Shown: positions 10,763 to 58,506 of the stretch, in pieces
Numbering within the stretch: the first letter of the stretch is position 1
Layout: every line of letters begins with the position of its first letter
Origin: Phoronis australis
Lineage: Eukaryota > Animalia > Phoronida
Assembly (NCBI GenBank): GCA_002633005.1
Contig: NMRA01000131.1
Span: 359,798-423,797, forward strand
DNA length: 64,000 nt
Direction: 5' to 3'
Translations under genes and position numbers: made by a program
Notes under the pieces: generated by a model
What the model was told of the DNA's origin: nothing
Databases searched by the model: none
What the model saw: the letters and a program-made list of their open reading frames with translations, nothing else

Positions 10763-10830
10763 AGGATATGCCGATAGCTAAGTAACCACATTGTATTTGA
10801 CCTCAATAGTCTATGCAGCAAAAAGGATAT

Positions 10831-16202: not shown

Positions 16203-16990
16203 ATAATACAGTGGCCACCTAGCTAGGCCCAGCAACAAGTTGTAAGTTCTTTGATATTAGAATCAAACCTAGCCCAAGTGTTGTTAATGCGATATACCCT
16301 GCATATCGCATTAACAACACTTGGGCTAAAGAACTTACAACGAATTTGCAAAAGAATGGCTATCCCCTAGAATTAGTCAATAAGGTACTGAATTAAAGCA
16401 AGACTCCAACGTAAACTTGATGATGTTCATCCTGTAGACAAAACTAACTACAAGTACTTTAAAATACCCTATGTTGGGTTTTACGCCAAAATTGCTCAAC
16501 GAAAACTCAACAAGTTGGTGAATGATTACTTAAGAGTTGTATTAACATTCAAGTCTCTAAAACTGTCGAGTTTATTTAACCCTAAGGACAAAATTTCTAT
16601 GGGTCTACGGTCCAAGGTAGTATACAAATTTATCTGTGTTGGATGTGGCTCCAGTTATATAGGCGAAACTGTTCGCCGTTTGAAAACCAGGACCAAGGAA
16701 CATCTAAATTCTGACAGTAATTCACATATCAATATTCACCTGCAGAGCTCCAATCATTGTTATCAGCAGTGCTCTTTCAATGACTTTGCAATAATAGACC
16801 AGGCAGTAACAACAAAGGAGCTTAAAATTCGTGAGGCTTTACATATCAGTTGGTGTAAGCCCAATCTCAATAGGCAACTGACACACCACAGGTTGTCATT
16901 GTTGGTCTAGTTCATTGTCACTCCCTGTAACTGACTCTATCTGTGCTTCATTACTTGTTGCTGGGCCTAGCTAGGTGGCCACTGTATTAT

Positions 16991-25323: not shown

Positions 25324-25655
25324 GCAAACATTTCTAAGTTTGGTCAGCACGCCACCTATGGCCAAATCACGTGACCTAATGAATATAAGTCTGTGAAAAG
25401 GGACTCGAACCTGGGACCTTCAGCTAACCGTGCAGACGCTTTAGTCCACTGAGCCGTCGGAACCACCAGTCGAATGTACATCTCGCCCTTGAACTCCTGA
25501 GTGTACATATGCAAATCTTAAACCACCGTCTGCATGGTTTGCAGAAAATCTCAGGTTCTAGTTACGGTTGGGACAGCAATCTTTTTAGGCTGATATTCAT
25601 TAGGTCACGTGAAGTGGCCACAGGTGGTGTGCTAACCAAACTTAGAAATGCTTGC
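25324..25655. mobile_element. Second, more decayed palindromic tRNA-twin element
   Basis: Inverted arms share TCACGTGACCTAATGAATAT with the 55-kb copy; tRNA-like head on the minus strand at about 25400-25470; right head partly deleted. Confidence 0.8.
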
Positions 25656-48859: not shown

Positions 48860-51800
48860 TTATTGATACCATTGGTAAGCTAGGAATGCAGGGCTCTCCT
48901 TTTCTACCTCAAATGATCATGGGACCCCATTAGCAGATTGGTACTAAAAATGAAAAAAGAGCAACGCGGAGCGTTGAAATGCGCCCACGAATGCACTGCA
49001 AACGATGTGCCTCTAGGAGTGTTTATTTGGAACATAAAAATGGCCATTAAATGGCACAAAATACGTCGAATCCATCCAAAAACTGTTGTGTCATCAAAAC
49101 TAGTTACCAAATTTCATAAAAATTCGTCAGGGAACTTCTGAGAAACCGAAGAAACGAAAAAATGATGTTACCACTAGGAGGTTATAAGCGCCAAAAAACA
49201 TAACTGCTACTAAGAGGCACCACAGTAGATGACGTCATCGGAAAATCATTGTCAGACGTCCTCCTCACATTAGGAACATACATGCCAATTTCCAAATCCA
49301 TCCTTAGAGTAAATTGGGAGACAGAAAGGCAGACGCCAACTAACAGAAATCGAAAACAGTAAAAATGGCCACTGGGTGGCACAAAATGCCTCGAATTCAA
49401 CCGAGAACCAGACAATAGCGTCTCCTCACTAATAGATGCCTATCTGACAAATTTTATGAAAATCCGTTGGCGACGTTTGAAGATACAGTCTCAGGTAAAC
49501 GTAAAAATCCAAAATTGCCACTACAAGGCACCATGGTAGTCCGATCCGTTCGAAAGTCGTCGTCCTGTGTTGCCAACTTCATATAAATACACCAGCAAAA
49601 TTAAGTAAAGATCCTGTAGAGCATTTAGGAGATACAGCCATAAATGTTCTGAAGTGAAGGCCTCCGAGGAGTGTGAACCATTAGCTTATGCTGATGTTGA
49701 AAACACAACTACACCACATCTCGTGGAGTTGGCTCTAAAGTCTTTCAAACCACGGAAGTCGCCAGGACTAGACATGATATATCCTATAATGCTGCAAGAG
49801 GCTGGAATACCATTATTCCAAATACTCACAGAGACCTACAAAGCCAGTCTTAGATTAGGTTATATCCCCAAGACTCAGACTGAGGCTAGGGTAGTCTTCA
49901 TTCCTAAACCAGGGAAGAACTCGTACCTTTTGGCTGAATCATTTAGGCCTATAACCTTAAAATCCTTCTTTCTCAAAGGCCTGGAAAGGCTCATTCTGTG
50001 GCATCTTGATAAACAAGGCATACAGAACAAACTTCAGAACAACCACTATGCTTATAGGCCAGGTTTCTCCAGAGACTGCTCTACATCATCTGGTTGCTAG
50101 CTCTGGAAAGGGCCGTTTTAATAAAAAATTTGCCCTCTGTGCCTTCATTGATCTTGTTGGTGCTTTCAGTAATATTAAGCATGACACGGTCCAAGTTGCA
50201 CTAAACCAAAGTGAATAGGTGTCTTAAAAAGTGGATTATTAAAATGCTCAATCTGTGACTGCTTGTCCAGAGGATGTGAGTGTGGCGGTTCGTATCACCA
50301 GGGGAACACCTCAGGGTGTCTTACCCACCCTCTTTAACGTGGTTATGGATGGTCTGCTTCAACAATTATCTACTGACATGGGTCCAAGATTGCATGTTCA
50401 AGCCTATGCAGATGATATTGTTCTCAATGTGTCTAGCATTGATCTTGACACATGTCGCTATCTTGCTCAAAGAGCACTGAATACAACAGCCACATGGGCT
50501 CAGTCAGTTGCCTTAGAAATTAGTGGCAGCAAAACAAACTTAAGGTGATTATGTTCACCTGGAAGCTTAAATGGTCAGTGCGACCTTTAATGCTGAATGG
50601 TAAACATCTTGACCTTGTAGACAAGGTGACTTATCTAAGTGTCATTTTACACCATCATTTTTCCTGGACCCCACATATTACAGAAAACATCTCAAAAGCC
50701 AAAAATGCACGGGTGAGATGCAGTCATGTGGTAGGTAAAACTTGGGGAATGTCTCCCAGGAATATGTTCTGGATTTATACTGCTGTTATCCGACCTATGA
50801 TGTCCTATGATGCGTCACTATGGGTAACAGCATTAAAACAATTACAATTATCAACAAACTTAATCAGCTGCAACATCTAGCTTGTTTGTGCATAACCTCA
50901 GAAATGCCTTCTGCAGTCCCAGAAATGCTAATCGGTCTACCACCACTGTACATTTACCTTGAGGGTGAAGCTGCATGTGCTGCACTTCGTCTCAAATATA
51001 ATGGTCAGTGGGTGAAAACTAACATCCCTGAACTCGTTACACACAGAAGCGAAAGGAATGTTTGCAATAAGCTAATGGCCAAGACTGGGCAACTATGGAA
51101 CATGCCTAGTGATGTCCAGATCACAGCTTTCAATTATTCAAACAATTTCTTCACGGAAAGTAGTGATGGATGGCCTACCGCAGAACACAAAAATGAGGTG
51201 GTTTGTTATACAGATGGCTCTAAACTGGAAAATGGCCATACAGGTGCTGGAGCTTATCTTCCAAGCCTTCCTGTTGCAGATCCAGAAAGCTGGGTATCGC
51301 TAGGCAATCTTGCCACGGTGTTCCAGGCCATTGCAATTAATAGAGCTGCTCAACTGGCACGACAACACTGAGCCGGGAAATCAGCCAATTACCATCTTTT
51401 CAGATAGCCATGCAGCAATAAAAGCCATAAAGAAACCCAGGGTCAATTCTCGTTGTAATACTTGTATTAATGAGCTTAACAAACTTGCAATTGAAAGAAC
51501 CATCAATATACACTGGGTCAGGGCCCATGTGGGAATTGATGGTAATGAGAATGCAGGCAGACTCGCAAAGATAGGAGCAAGCATTCTACATTGTGTGCCT
51601 GAACCTGCTATCCTGGTATCTTACGGATGCTGCAGGATGAGGATACGCAACTGGGCACATACACAGTCAGCAGCCCAGTGGGCATCACTTATTTCCTGCA
51701 GAGAGACCAAGGAGAATTTTCCCAACGTGATCAAACCAAAAGGTTCAAAAAGCCTTCTGAGTGTAGATAGATAGGGCACAAGACACGTCATTCAAATTTT

Positions 51801-52896: not shown

Positions 52897-53007
52897 CTTG
52901 GGCCTAGGTATCGCTTTCTGTGGTGCACCACTCTGCATTTTCTTCATAGCTGCGTAATACTTCTTTTGATCCTCAGTCATGAACATCTCCAGTGAACCCC
53001 CTCCTGC
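52897..53007 (-). CDS. Gene B exon, DIII-DIV linker/inactivation gate ([37 protein letters not shown])
   Basis: Read manually (not in the ORF track); [11 protein letters not shown] motif as in insect para; donor AAG|GTTGGT, phase 0. Confidence 0.95.
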
Positions 53008-53585
53008 GTAAATAAACAACAGGTATGTTAACATCCTCAAAGAGCAGACAGAAGGCCACTAAATAAAAGGCAAACAATATTTTGTTGAAAACATGTTTAA
53101 CATCAGGCAATAAAATCCTTTGGATTTAAATTGGGTTAAAATTCCTTCATCAAACCTAAGTTTCCTGAAGAAGTAATAAATTTGAGCTGAACTTCTACAA
53201 TACAATATTTTTCTTTTAGCAGATGGGTGAAAATGTTTACCAGTATTCATAGAATGTCAAAATCACTGAAGACAAAAGGGTCTTCCCTTGAACCACACTC
53301 ACAACCATAATATGTATAACAAGATAGATTGTTCTTTGAAACACTGCACACATAATTTAATTGTCTGTGTTCCTTCATTCCTATCCAAAGACAGATAGAG
53401 CAAGTGCAAATAATGTTCTATATTCAACGAAGTTGGGACTGCAATATTCAGTTTAGCAAAGCGCCATCTGGTGGTGCCTTGAATACAGTACCAATGTCAC
53501 AACAAACCTAACACCGTTAGTCATTTTTCGTAGAACATAAAAAGAAATGTAGTCCAATCCCCATAGATACATCCTTATCGCACTA

Positions 53586-53746
53586 CAGTCGAACCTTTAA
53601 CAATGAATGTACTTCATAACATTCCATCATTTAAAATGTTCAACTGTATTGTAGACACAGGTAGATTTGGATATAAGTGAATAGCATTTAAAACACTGAC
53701 GAATTTAGAAACCTGCTGGGAGGGCTCATTGAAACAGGTTCAACTG
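53586..53746. mobile_element. Tc1/mariner-type MITE
   Basis: TA|CAGTCGAACCT ... AGGTTCAACTG|TA. Confidence 0.7.
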
Positions 53747-54370
53747 TATAGACTATACTGTCCCTGTAACATTGTCTCATAAAGGATCCTAAAACACGTC
53801 ATACAAACAGAGCAGTCAACATTGGTCACAAGTATAATTGTATAGTAAGTCAGGGCATATACAATTACTTCAGTCTAAACTTTCACCATGTCATGGTGTA
53901 ATATCAGGCACATCAAACTAGTAGACAGATTATTAGCAAATAAATCAAGTAAATTATAAAAACACAAAGAAAATAGCAATACATTACACAATATCTTGGT
54001 CACATAAACAGGCCATGCAGTGATCCATGCTGTAACAAAGTCAAATACATTCAAATCTCCATGGTAACAAAATGATCAGTTGACAGACTATTTTTTGTTC
54101 ATGGTACATGACAGAACATTCCAGAACATTAAATGTATTTTCGGTTCTAAAAATAACCCAAAACCACTTGTACCAAACATTTCTCAATTACTTAGCAGAT
54201 TGTTAATCGTTTAGCAACTCAAGGTCACATCAAGAGAGTTGGGATAACTGGGTGCAGAAAGGGAGTCGGGATAACTGGGTGCAGAAACATTTCCAATTTC
54301 TATTTAGACAACAACAATCACAAGAACTTAAGTAACACCAACACTAACACACAAACACATTGACACGCGA

Positions 54371-54371
<1 letters not shown>

Positions 54372-54437
<66 letters not shown>

Positions 54438-54450
54438 AACAAACAAACAC
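54372..54450. repeat. (CA)n then (CAAA)n microsatellite
   Basis: Directly visible. Confidence 0.95.
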
Positions 54451-54605
54451 ACCACATATCAAAACTTTGTAACAGGGATGAGCCCCTCATGGTTTCTTGC
54501 ACTAACTACACAATTCAACTGAAGATTATTAGTCAAGAGTAATCAACAAAATTAGTTTCAATGCTATCTAGTGCGGACACAAGCATGCTCTCTCTCGCAG
54601 TTTAC

Positions 54606-54615
54606 CTTCCGCGCC
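54606..54615 (-). CDS. Candidate 10-nt microexon GGCGCGGAAG in gene B (speculative)
   Basis: Context ccctttatttccttacAC|GGCGCGGAAG|GTAAAC; in frame only when joined to the alternative AG acceptor at 53005-53004. Confidence 0.45.
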
Positions 54616-54940
54616 GTGTAAGGAAATAAAGGGTATTTATACTAGTGGGTCAACTACAGAGGGCGTGAGCTAGGATGATCAAAGATTCACAAGCAATTAA
54701 AGTTTCACAGTACTTGCACCCTGTTGGGATTTCATTCCTTAATTTATTAATTAGAGGTTTTCAGCAACCTAGGTAAATTTCATATTTTTTCAAGAGGCAC
54801 CTCTGTTTAGGTGGCTGTTGTGGACAGAAATACAAAAGATGAAAATTGAAAAAAGTCAACGATACAACAAAATGTGTCGAACCCCCTTAGACTGAATTTT
54901 AAGCATCATATTTTCCAAAGTTGGCTCTACCAATTTTGAT

Positions 54941-55328
54941 TATGTTGCAAGCAGTTTATCCCGTTCAATCTGCCATATTTTTTATCACATCACGTGACCT
55001 AATGAATATATGTCCGAAAAGATTTCTGCCCTGACTGGTACTCAAACCCAGAACCTTCTGCTAACCGTGAAGATGCTCTAGCCACTGAGCCATCGGGACC
55101 ACTGGTCAAACACATGGGTAAGATGTTCACTGCAAAGTCTGATTGAATTTCTGTGTTTGACCAGTGGTCCCGATGGCTCAGTGGCTGAAGCATCTGCACG
55201 GTTAGCTGAAGGTCCTGGGTTCGAGTCCTGGTGGGGGGGGCAGAAATCTTTTCGGACTTATATTCATTAGGTCACGTGATGTGATCAAAAAGATGGCGAA
55301 TTGAATGGGATAAACTGCTTGCAACATA
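54941..55328. mobile_element. Palindromic element with two divergent tRNA-derived heads
   Basis: Arms 54941-55114 and 55152-55328 are reverse complements. The right arm has A box TGGCTCAGTGG and B box GGTTCGAGTCC; the left arm has the same A box and a one-mismatch B box. Confidence 0.85.
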
Positions 55329-58300
55329 TTCCTCGCCTCACTGAAAAAGATATATATATATACAATTTTGATTAGTAAAATAACTCAACAAAAGGATTAA
55401 GGTTATGTCGGACCCTACCAAAATGTGCAGATAAGACAAACTTCAGAATGTCATATCTCAGAATGGCTGATTGGATTCAGATAAAAATTTCAGATACTAT
55501 AATGCTAAGTTTATGCACAGGTCTTCAAAGCGCTATTACGAATTATTTTTAAAATGTTTCATTTTTGCATAACAAGCTATAAAAAGGACCTCAATGATCT
55601 ATGTGAAAAATATTTAAAAGTTGCATAAAGAAAAAACAAAATAAATTAAAAAAATTAAGTGTTTTTGAGATTTCTTCTAGGACACGTATATTAAACAAAA
55701 TCTGGCCAAGTTAATGATGCTATTGTAAATGTATACTAAAAAGACAGACATCTGACCCAGTTAGTGGCATGGTGGTATACGAAGTCAAACATCTACAACA
55801 GACTTTCCACTGTCAGAAAACAATGCACTTTTACTGAGTTAAATCTAAGGTTTTGTAGACATTTGGCTAAATACGAAAACTTGTCAATAAGATCCAACAT
55901 AATGTTAACGATGAGGGAATTTTGATATTATCATTGTCATTGTTTGTATAACACAGTTATCAGAATATAAACATTAAGAAAAATTTTTGCTTTTCAAAAA
56001 GCACCAGACCTTGGCTGAACTGATGGCATGTTAAATCGGTGAACGCATATCTCAAAATGCGTTGAGGTAAAGACCAGAATCAACTATATGCTTTTTTCAG
56101 CCTTGCCTTACTTTATGAAAAAATCGAGCAAACGTGACTTTTACAGACAGTACTCTGAATCTTTGATACACTCCAGCCAACAATATCTAATAGGGGAAGA
56201 TGAGATGCCATCATCAGAGAAGCTATGTCAATAGTGAAGACTTAAAACATGACATGGCATCTGTTTCATGATAGTGACGTAACACTTAAGACAGAAACTT
56301 GGACTTACGGTCCCAATTTACAATTTGTGAATGAAAATTTAGCCAAGACCAAATTTCCCTCTTAACTCTCAAGACATTTTTCATGAAACAGATACTGTTA
56401 CTTATCTCTGAGAAAGTTTGAGAGTGGTAAACTTTATAACATTTAGAAACCTTAATAATGGCCTTTTCAATCAGGAACATGGATATAGTCAAGAAGAGAC
56501 AGGGGGTAACTTTTCCACCAATTTTGATTGTGGGCATTTCCAAACTCATAAATAGTGAATTGTTTTGTGAACATGATCCCAAGACCTCAGCTAAAATGAA
56601 CGCTATAGAAGTCAAAACAATGATAAAAAAGAGACGGAAAGAGAAGAAATTGGAATAAATTGAATAAGAGGAAAACTCCAACCCCTACACCGGTGCAGCC
56701 CCACTCCCTCATTGAATTGCCCAATGATAAGCAGGCAGTGTAGCATTACTCAATTATTGGGCTGATCAATGATAAGCAACCATTGTAGTCATGTCCCATT
56801 TCAGTTCAACAGCATCATCCCAAACAAGATCTTCAAAGCAGCACCAATATCAGTGTCTAGAACCTTTTTATCATAGGAGAGAACATAAAGGGAGGGAAAC
56901 CCGTAACCACAGACATTTGTCCAATTTTCCAAATCATTTAATATGTGTCTGTATTACGATTCACAACACAAATTTAAACTGGTAAGTTTAAAATTTAAAA
57001 ACCAGTAACCACAGTAATCAAGCTGAAGATTAAGTGCCTGACAAAAGTGAAGCACTGTGGGTAAATAGCTCAATTTCTCATACACATTTTGATTTATTTC
57101 AGGATGAGGCCATAGAGAGTAAAGGTTGATTATAACAGGGAGAGGAATTCTAAGATGACACAATATAGTCAGACAAGGGAAGGGAAAGGGTTGTGAGTAC
57201 AACAATTAATACAAATATGTCATCATAATTATCTAAGTTAGAAGCAAGGAAAATCAAAGGACTGGCTATTTGTCTGTTTGAATCCCAATGTTCACAATCT
57301 AGTTACTAAATGCTCTTGAACTCATGTAATGTACTTTTACCCAGCGTTCCCTTCCTTGTCAATAAAGGCTGCAGAGGGCAACAAATTTAACATTAAAGAT
57401 GCATAGTCTCATTAAATTGTAAATATACCAATGAGGTATGACTTTATAAACACTCCCAGGTCCTCCAGTGTGCCACAAACCACCCCAGAGCCAGTTACCA
57501 TTACAATCTCGCTAAAGTCTCGTTTTGCAAGCCTTTTTATGAAAATAATATTTCATCATGGCAGACAAAAACCCGATGGCAGCCAAGAGAACAGAGAAGG
57601 CACATAATTTCATTTTGCTGTCAACTTGGACAATATTCAGAATCAAGCCATTTTGCATCGGGTAGTGCAAATTATAAGAGTTTGCACACATTTCTCATCC
57701 ACATTTCTTAAGACAACATGGGAATCCTAGGGAAACCCCCACAGCATTGGCGTTACCCTAATGAAACAAGGAGCAGTTTCTTTTCACTATCAAATAACAA
57801 TGCATAATATTTGGAATTACTAGGGTTTTTATGTGTTCACTTTGTTTTTAAGTGTATTAGTTGTGGTGTTTTCTTTAAAACTGCAATTTTTTATAAATTG
57901 TTTCTTTTCCTGATTATACTTAGTATCTTTTACACACACAGAGAGTTCTCCGGGAAGTCACTAGGTGGTGCTTGCTACAAATTTAAATATTCACGGTTTA
58001 ATGAGACATAGCATCTTTAAGGGCAATGGTAAACAGAGAACAGCCAACTGTGCTGCCTACCTCAAGTGAACCATAGTTGAGCTAACAGCCGATGGCAAGG
58101 TGTGGAAATATGGCAAAATCAAACCGCATTCATTCAATTCCTTTCGGCTTCATTGATGTGACCTGTCAGTTCAGCTGAGGTTCACAATGAGCAGACAGCT
58201 CAGTTAATAGCTACCTGTCTACGTTGGCTCTAACATAACAGAAAAGCAGAGTTGAACCAACAGAAATAACGAAGACCTATTCTGGCTTGTAAAACAATAC

Positions 58301-58368
58301 ACCTCTTATCAACTGACTAAGAATCAAAACATGTAGAGCCTAGTGTTTTAAACTCAGTGGATACTTAT

Positions 58369-58506
58369 CTTGTTCTTTTGAGCATTGAAGTTCTCGATGA
58401 TGACACCAATGAAAAGGTTAAGCGTGAAGAATGCACCGAAGACAATGAAGATGACAAAATAGATAAGCATATACCAACTGGCTTCCCTCACAGGCTGTTT
58501 GTCTTC
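58369..58506 (-). CDS. Gene B exon, DIII S6 ([46 protein letters not shown])
   Basis: Acceptor ccacag|; 138 nt; ends at the non-canonical donor AAG|ATAAGT. Confidence 0.95.

Follow-up and report, generated by a model that had tools for sequence, protein, structure and literature searches.

Can a sodium-channel intron that begins with AT and ends with AC house an optional exon, and could such an exon retune the inactivation gate beside it? The question is raised by a 64,000-nt stretch of Phoronis australis DNA (contig NMRA01000131.1), hereafter the window. Exons on its minus strand from 61453 to 44478 belong to a sodium-channel gene with four domains, Nav1, and make up its 3' part. The intron just before the MFM latch of the III-IV linker reads ATAAGT...TAC (58368-53008) and contains a 10-nt block, GGCGCGGAAG. 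A sequence-only reading had proposed this block as a candidate microexon switch nested in the AT-AC intron, and our analysis supported that interpretation, with corrections. Very probably, the block is a real, conserved microexon. It is also likely to be alternatively spliced in this gene. We consider likely the combined view that it is an ancient optional microexon, conserved with copepods, that would lengthen the hinge before the MFM latch by two residues.

The predicted splice anatomy comprises the following features (L013, L022, and L034 are homologous loci from metagenome contigs).

58369..58506, minus strand: domain III S6 exon, 138 nt, phase 0, ending ...NAQKNK (tblastn with Nav1 homologues; borders checked)
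53008..58368, minus strand: AT-AC intron with U2-type signals, 5361 nt, fully removed in the skip form (from sequence; AT..AC ends at the same position in L013 and L034)
58359..58368, minus strand: AT donor ATAAGTATCC, U2-type consensus except at +1 and unlike the U12 donor at 10830
54616..54641, minus strand: pyrimidine tract (13/15 pyrimidines; 26-nt AG-free zone) and AC acceptor of the microexon
54606..54615, minus strand: candidate 10-nt microexon GGCGCGGAAG, encoding Gly-Ala-Glu and opening a Gly codon with its last base
54600..54605, minus strand: GTAAAC, the microexon's GT donor (L022 and L034, both copepod-like, have GTAGGT)
53008..53030, minus strand: terminal pyrimidine tract and AC acceptor, predicted from sequence for the skip form
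53004..53007, minus strand: GCAG, with which the exon begins when the microexon is skipped; the AG within it is predicted to serve as GT-AG acceptor on inclusion
52897..53007, minus strand: III-IV linker exon ending ...RPK, with the MFM latch at 52986-52978

The upstream exon terminates ...AACAAG at 58369, and the intron opens with ATAAGTATCC at 58368. The order of AT donor, AC, 10 nt, and GTAAAC is present on the minus strand where the sequence-only reading had placed it, as are the two acceptors 4 nt apart: the terminal AC of the intron at 53009-53008 and a second acceptor, AG, at 53005-53004. The intron has the marks of the U2-type AT-AC class, running from ATAAGTATCC to TTTATTTAC with a pyrimidine tract rather than carrying ATATCCTT plus TCCTTAAC, in contrast to the U12 intron at 10830-8818. 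We take this intron position, just before the latch, to be AT-AC in vertebrate sodium-channel genes as well.

Translation showed that the frame stays open both on skipping (AT..AC) and on inclusion (AT..AC, microexon, GT to the +4 AG). As had been claimed, inclusion adds two residues, one of them acidic: the net change is +6 nt, and Ala becomes Gly-Ala-Glu. The mixed pairings, AT..AG and microexon GT..AC, both break the frame. A third in-frame reading had been overlooked, in which a GT at donor +5 is joined to the +4 AG to give QKNK-IRGGSLE. The block has the sequence properties of a cassette microexon, namely a length of 3-30 nt, splice signals on both sides, and an open frame on inclusion and skipping.

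Within the 5361-nt intron, the block at 54615-54606 was the sole candidate. Dinucleotide shuffles of the intron gave a candidate in 1.7% of 300 trials at the candidate's own thresholds and in 17% of 300 when the pyrimidine threshold was relaxed to that of the true acceptor. These values suggest that, from the window alone, the block stands modestly above chance. On sequence comparison, the decisive excess over chance is the cross-species match.

The scan, defined on the window intron, was rerun without alteration on homologous introns found in metagenome contigs. A search of these contigs with the linker exon, covering 19 of their 64 parts, yielded 105 confirmed loci, 80 of which were retained. 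No stray animal DNA turned up when prokaryote genome contigs were scanned for it. Exactly one candidate was detected in each of L034 (911-920) and L022 (387-396), both 10 nt long and both after AC. These two loci are copepod-like as judged by their own exons. The L034 block reads tac-GGCGCTGATG-gtaggt and lies in a complete AT..AC intron of 1989 nt; that of L022, in a partial intron, reads cac-GGCGCCGATG-gtaggt, compared with cac-GGCGCGGAAG-gtaaac in the window. Each is 8/10 identical to the window block, and third codon positions alone differ: one difference is synonymous (Ala) and one exchanges Glu and Asp, giving G-A-E in the window and G-A-D in the copepod-like loci. On translation, L034 yields KKK-AGGSLE when the block is skipped or KKK-GADGGSLE when it is included. 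The conservation of the AC/10-nt/GT arrangement that the sequence-only reading had proposed as a check is thus present in two loci, with third-position changes only.

Matches of at least 7/10 to the block, between AC and GT[AG], arose in 10/2000 and 5/2000 shuffles, corresponding to 0.25-0.5% per intron, and the remaining introns gave none across 122,070 nt searched on both strands. The pattern GGNGCNGANGGTR occurred three times in the 416 kb of loci plus window, both strands included, each time after AC inside this intron. One AG-type locus, L062, matched a relaxed pattern with a different sequence and was excluded from the count. The intron downstream of the microexon is of similar length in the window (1602 nt, 54605-53004), L034 (1648 nt), and L022 (1517 nt), which may be chance.

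Intron sequence was available for 64 loci. Twenty-eight introns were complete (23 GT-AG, 3 AT-AA, and 2 AT-AC) and 36 were partial (31 ending in AG, 4 in AC, and 1 in AA); L013 and L034 have AT..AC ends at the same intron position. Further proteins that run from the intron into the exon numbered 63 of 148, with a last intron codon of His or Tyr, which is AC-compatible, in 33 and of Gln, which is AG-compatible, in 28. Based on the His/Tyr codon counts and the metagenome loci, the AT-AC form is widespread in protostomes. AT-AA ends (ATGAGT...ATAA) were observed at the same intron in loci with annelid-type linkers, the intron being complete in L053 (1528-2295), L061, and L080 and partial in L073.

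Where the exon start encodes A-G(G)-S (66 loci), the exon begins with GCAG in 6/6 AC loci versus 12/50 AG loci. With near-copies merged, the counts were 4/4 versus 4/29 (Fisher p 0.002), and GCAG also occurs in 2/6 intronless loci (p 0.06-0.08 versus AC loci); these p-values overstate independence because the five classed AC loci and L012 are all arthropod. The +4 AG is kept in AC-type loci without a detected block, including the complete intron of L013, and is therefore no evidence for the exon by itself. None of the 58 AG- or AA-type introns (23 AG and 3 AA complete) contained the block, and its absence from 23/23 complete GT-AG introns is as expected if the block shifts the frame there. Three further AC-type loci, L012, L016, and L030, are uninformative: their sequence ahead of the exon measures 324, 295, and 1013 nt, shorter than the 1.5-1.65 kb at which the positive loci have the block.

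Several observations weigh against an ancient optional microexon. L013, a termite-like locus whose AT-AC intron is complete at 4111 nt, lacks the block. Both positive loci are copepod-like and therefore represent one lineage, which leaves two lineages as the basis for an ancient origin. Apart from its pyrimidine richness, the flanking intron aligns poorly across loci, and no UGC lies within 25 nt upstream of the block in the window, L034, or L022, unlike in eMIC/Srrm microexons. Finally, the insert was found in 0/458 database proteins with a joined S6-linker, of 710 gathered, including 0/11 copepod proteins.

This negative is genuine, yet it comes from gene models that cope poorly with the intron and may be unable to show the insert: 10 of the 11 copepod proteins read the intron as a 4-nt-shifted GT-AG intron (IR/IS). 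Lepeophtheirus is annotated both ways, P0669 having AGG and P0668 IRG, and KKK-IRGSLE-type linkers occur in predicted proteins of Lepeophtheirus, Cherax, Procambarus, Rhodnius, and Trichonephila. Many arthropod Nav models contain KKK-IRGSLE or similar (P0079, P0166, P0508, P0516, P0521, P0522, and P0701). Judged from sequence, the arthropod IRGSLE linkers are probably a recurrent annotation error of the AT-AC intron. The protein records also show another kind of splicing: in predicted RefSeq isoforms from bivalves and Lineus (P0241, P0263, P0288, P0295, P0297, and others), the linker exon exists in two or three versions. Some of these alter the latch (MFM, MLM, LFM), and the versions are apparently mutually exclusive. 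These Nav1 duplicates resemble the window arrangement in concerning the same intron and a changed latch region, but they are whole-exon duplicates; a search for a linker-exon duplicate within the window found none. An amphioxus (Branchiostoma) protein, P0469, reads KKK-GGEGSSIDLFM, which resembles the inclusion form; the protein is not close to that of the window.

The copepod Acartia hudsonica has a 'mutant' Nav isoform whose III-IV linker reportedly differs by a substitution and a short insertion. According to the available parts of the two reports (PMC4228620, PMC4468163), alternative splicing takes part of an intron into this isoform, and the inactivation gate is affected. Both forms arise from one genotype and are co-expressed in every animal, and inactivation is possibly incomplete; subtle electrophysiological differences were reported, with no induction or selection by toxic algae (PMC4228620, PMC4468163). 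The likeness to the exon proposed for the window is that part of an intron is incorporated into a Nav channel, here a copepod one, by alternative splicing with an effect on the inactivation gate. The difference is that the isoform is called a novel mutation of one species and that the available text gives no sequence, AT-AC architecture, or wider conservation. We think it rather likely that the Acartia isoform is the same event as the 10-nt exon. The sequence-only reading had known of no prior description. In this respect, a gate-affecting splice isoform has been published (PMC4228620, PMC4468163), whereas a description of the architecture or its age was not found. The available text of PMC5295241, PMC3929608, PMC5660226, and bioRxiv 10.64898/2026.08.12.744261 mentions no such exon, and the supplements of PMC3929608 and PMC5660226 contained no match to it.

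The arrangement also shares features with better-described systems. In the available parts of PMC1557818, which define U2-type AT-AC introns, a G-to-A change at the first base of an intron is rescued by a G-to-C change at the last, and splicing of the human SCN4A and SCN5A AT-AC introns depends on U1/U2, not U11/U12. These 'type II' introns have in common with the window intron the AT..AC ends, the U2-type donor, and the Nav gene; that text mentions no internal cassette exon, whereas the window intron has a candidate one that would use the AT donor. In the Drosophila prospero, SRSF10, and MAPK8/9 twintrons, as described in the available parts of PMC3564746 and PMC8329584, a GT-AG intron likewise lies within an AT-AC intron and the choice alters the protein, but two spliceosomes act and one intron is U12-type. 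Unlike in the twintrons, a single AT donor in the window would serve both AC acceptors, and the offset of 10 nt in and 4 nt out would preserve the frame. The window arrangement works like a nested intron, yet both donors are U2-type by sequence and it is not a U12/U2 twintron by the definition in PMC3564746. The neural microexons of the eMIC/Srrm class, according to the available text of PMC8797185, resemble the candidate in being very short, in preserving the frame on balance, in belonging to neuronal ion-channel genes, and in having an AG-free zone and a pyrimidine tract. The window microexon differs from them in its AC acceptor, its length of 3n+1, and the lack of a UGC close upstream of the 3' splice site.

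The exon could be real and ancient yet not act as a switch here, being always included or persisting as a relic at trace level. This is unlikely: the window channel does sit on a long branch and inclusion was seen in 0/458 proteins, but both acceptors and both in-frame products are intact, and 8/10 identity with changes confined to third positions is unexpected for a relic. Moreover, the Acartia isoforms, if they are the same event, co-occur in varying proportions according to the available parts of those reports. A quite improbable explanation is that the window block is a chance look-alike of the copepod block or originated independently of it. Up to 17% of window-intron shuffles give some candidate at loose thresholds, the flanks align poorly, and a single outside lineage was found. 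Chance would nevertheless have to supply the equal length, the AC, the GT, and 8/10 identity, at a shuffle rate of 0.25-0.5% per intron and with nothing comparable in the 122,070-nt control; it would also have to place GGNGCNGANGGTR three times in the 416 kb of loci plus window, always after AC inside this intron.

It is very doubtful that the microexon is unneeded and that the +4 AG instead serves the 4-nt-shifted GT-AG reading (QKNK-IRGGSLE) or anchors 3' splice-site recognition. The shifted reading is in frame, linkers of the KKK-IRGSLE type occur in predicted proteins of five arthropod genera, and AC followed by GCAG is retained in the blockless L013. It leaves the conserved 10-nt block unexplained, however, and the contrast between Lepeophtheirus P0669 (AGG) and P0668 (IRG) suggests an artefact of gene prediction; the AG could also act as an anchor alongside the microexon. 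Scarcely credible is a recursive splice, in which TTCCTTAC before the block would be a U12 branch site and the AG-GT at the block end a zero-length splice point fed by GTATCC at +5. TTCCTTAC, at -10, looks like the U12 branch site (8836-8818) of a true U12 intron that the animal carries in the window; but the motif is missing from both copepod blocks, which end TG-GT rather than AG-GT, and the conserved portion is the coding-like 10 nt. The U12 branch site was dropped as support for the exon, as it is not conserved.

Other cues offered by the sequence-only reading fared less well than the splice anatomy. Its Rbfox-like GCATG is AGCATG, one of three GCATG in the intron, and is absent from -120..+260 nt of the copepod blocks, as is the (TG)n tract; both were dropped as support because they are not conserved. 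For its ACTAAT, no downstream ACTAAY was found at either copepod block. The CpG patch is indeed the intron maximum (6 in 111 nt; observed/expected ratio of the intron, 0.37), although the patch window was chosen post hoc.

In the proposed mechanism for the optional microexon, the first base of the donor would select the acceptor dinucleotide, A with AC and G with AG, and the AT donor could therefore be joined at the AC of either the microexon or the intron end. On inclusion, the GT donor that follows the microexon would use the AG four bases inside the next exon. With 10 nt in and 4 nt out, the gain is 6 nt, and the frame would therefore hold only in the two matched pairings; inclusion would replace Ala with Gly-Ala-Glu, or Gly-Ala-Asp in copepods. 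One spliceosome probably performs all steps because both introns carry U2-type signals. Were the outer intron to become GT-AG, joining a 10-nt exon to the phase-0 AG would put the reading out of frame, in keeping with the lack of the block in GT-AG introns. Positioned at the glycine hinge before the latch, the insert may make fast inactivation slower or less complete, to a degree set by the inclusion ratio. Such a gating effect is reasonably plausible given the glycine-hinge position and the tie between a glycine in the III-IV linker and slowed inactivation in human myotonia, the latter taken from the title of a reference in PMC4468163.

We regard as evenly poised the full account, in which the 10-nt microexon descends from the ancestor of arthropods and the window lineage, the pairing of intron ends serves as a frame lock, and Nav1 fast inactivation is retuned. 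The Acartia 'leaky mutant' would then be an ancient isoform, not a new toxin adaptation, and the exon would have been lost wherever the intron became GT-AG. The lineages that appear to share the block split in the Cambrian or earlier. If correct, the block would be a cassette exon whose AC acceptor pairs with a U2-type AT donor, located at an element critical for sodium-channel gating; no earlier description of such an exon was found in the literature search. The Acartia 'mutation' would be recast as a regulated ancient isoform. The exon would also provide one possible reason for lineages to keep AT-AC ends here, though not the sole one, since L013 keeps the ends without the exon. Gene-prediction pipelines would be poorly placed to detect such an isoform because the intron is often misread.

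By its sequence, this is a Nav1 gene of protostome type that falls outside the arthropods. It has the Nav1 (para-type) motifs ATFKGW (domain III K) and TSAGW (domain IV A), an MFM-type latch, and top matches to Nav1; domains I and II fall beyond the window edge. In the database search, the last exon was ~50-58% identical to Nav1 of nemerteans, molluscs, and annelids, and no close relative of the protein was found, the best identities being ~50-59%. A tree of 27 proteins, computed with a simpler model, placed the window channel outside the arthropod clade with support of 100/100 and gave it no firm phylum placement. The grouping of copepods with the window channel was rejected by the approximately unbiased (AU) test (p 2e-5), this group having been picked after the copepod match was known.

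The TSAGW motif sits in the last exon, 45608-44478. At the outer-ring pore positions, domain III reads GWLPIM (59652-59599) and domain IV GWAEV, where many relatives are acidic; loss of the domain III acid is taken as a sign of saxitoxin/tetrodotoxin (TTX) insensitivity in the available text of PMC5660226. The skip-form linker (53007-52987) is one glycine longer than the usual protostome AGGSLE, and relatives have 18 to 21 residues in the linker before the latch. Downstream of the first gene lies another Nav gene in tandem, with its 5' part at 21614-2030 on the minus strand. Before its domain I S1 is the textbook U12 AT-AC intron at 10830-8818, which reads ATATCCTTTT ... TTCCTTAAC ... AC. A 394-nt near-palindromic insertion at 54938-55331 has arms that are 87-93% complementary and related pieces at 25363-25616; we take it to resemble a miniature inverted-repeat transposable element (MITE). 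On the plus strand, two further sets of frames were noted by eye: intronic frames at 49609-51771, which we assume to be decayed reverse-transcriptase/RNase H-like sequences, and a frame at 16392-16907 that is presumably GIY-YIG-like.

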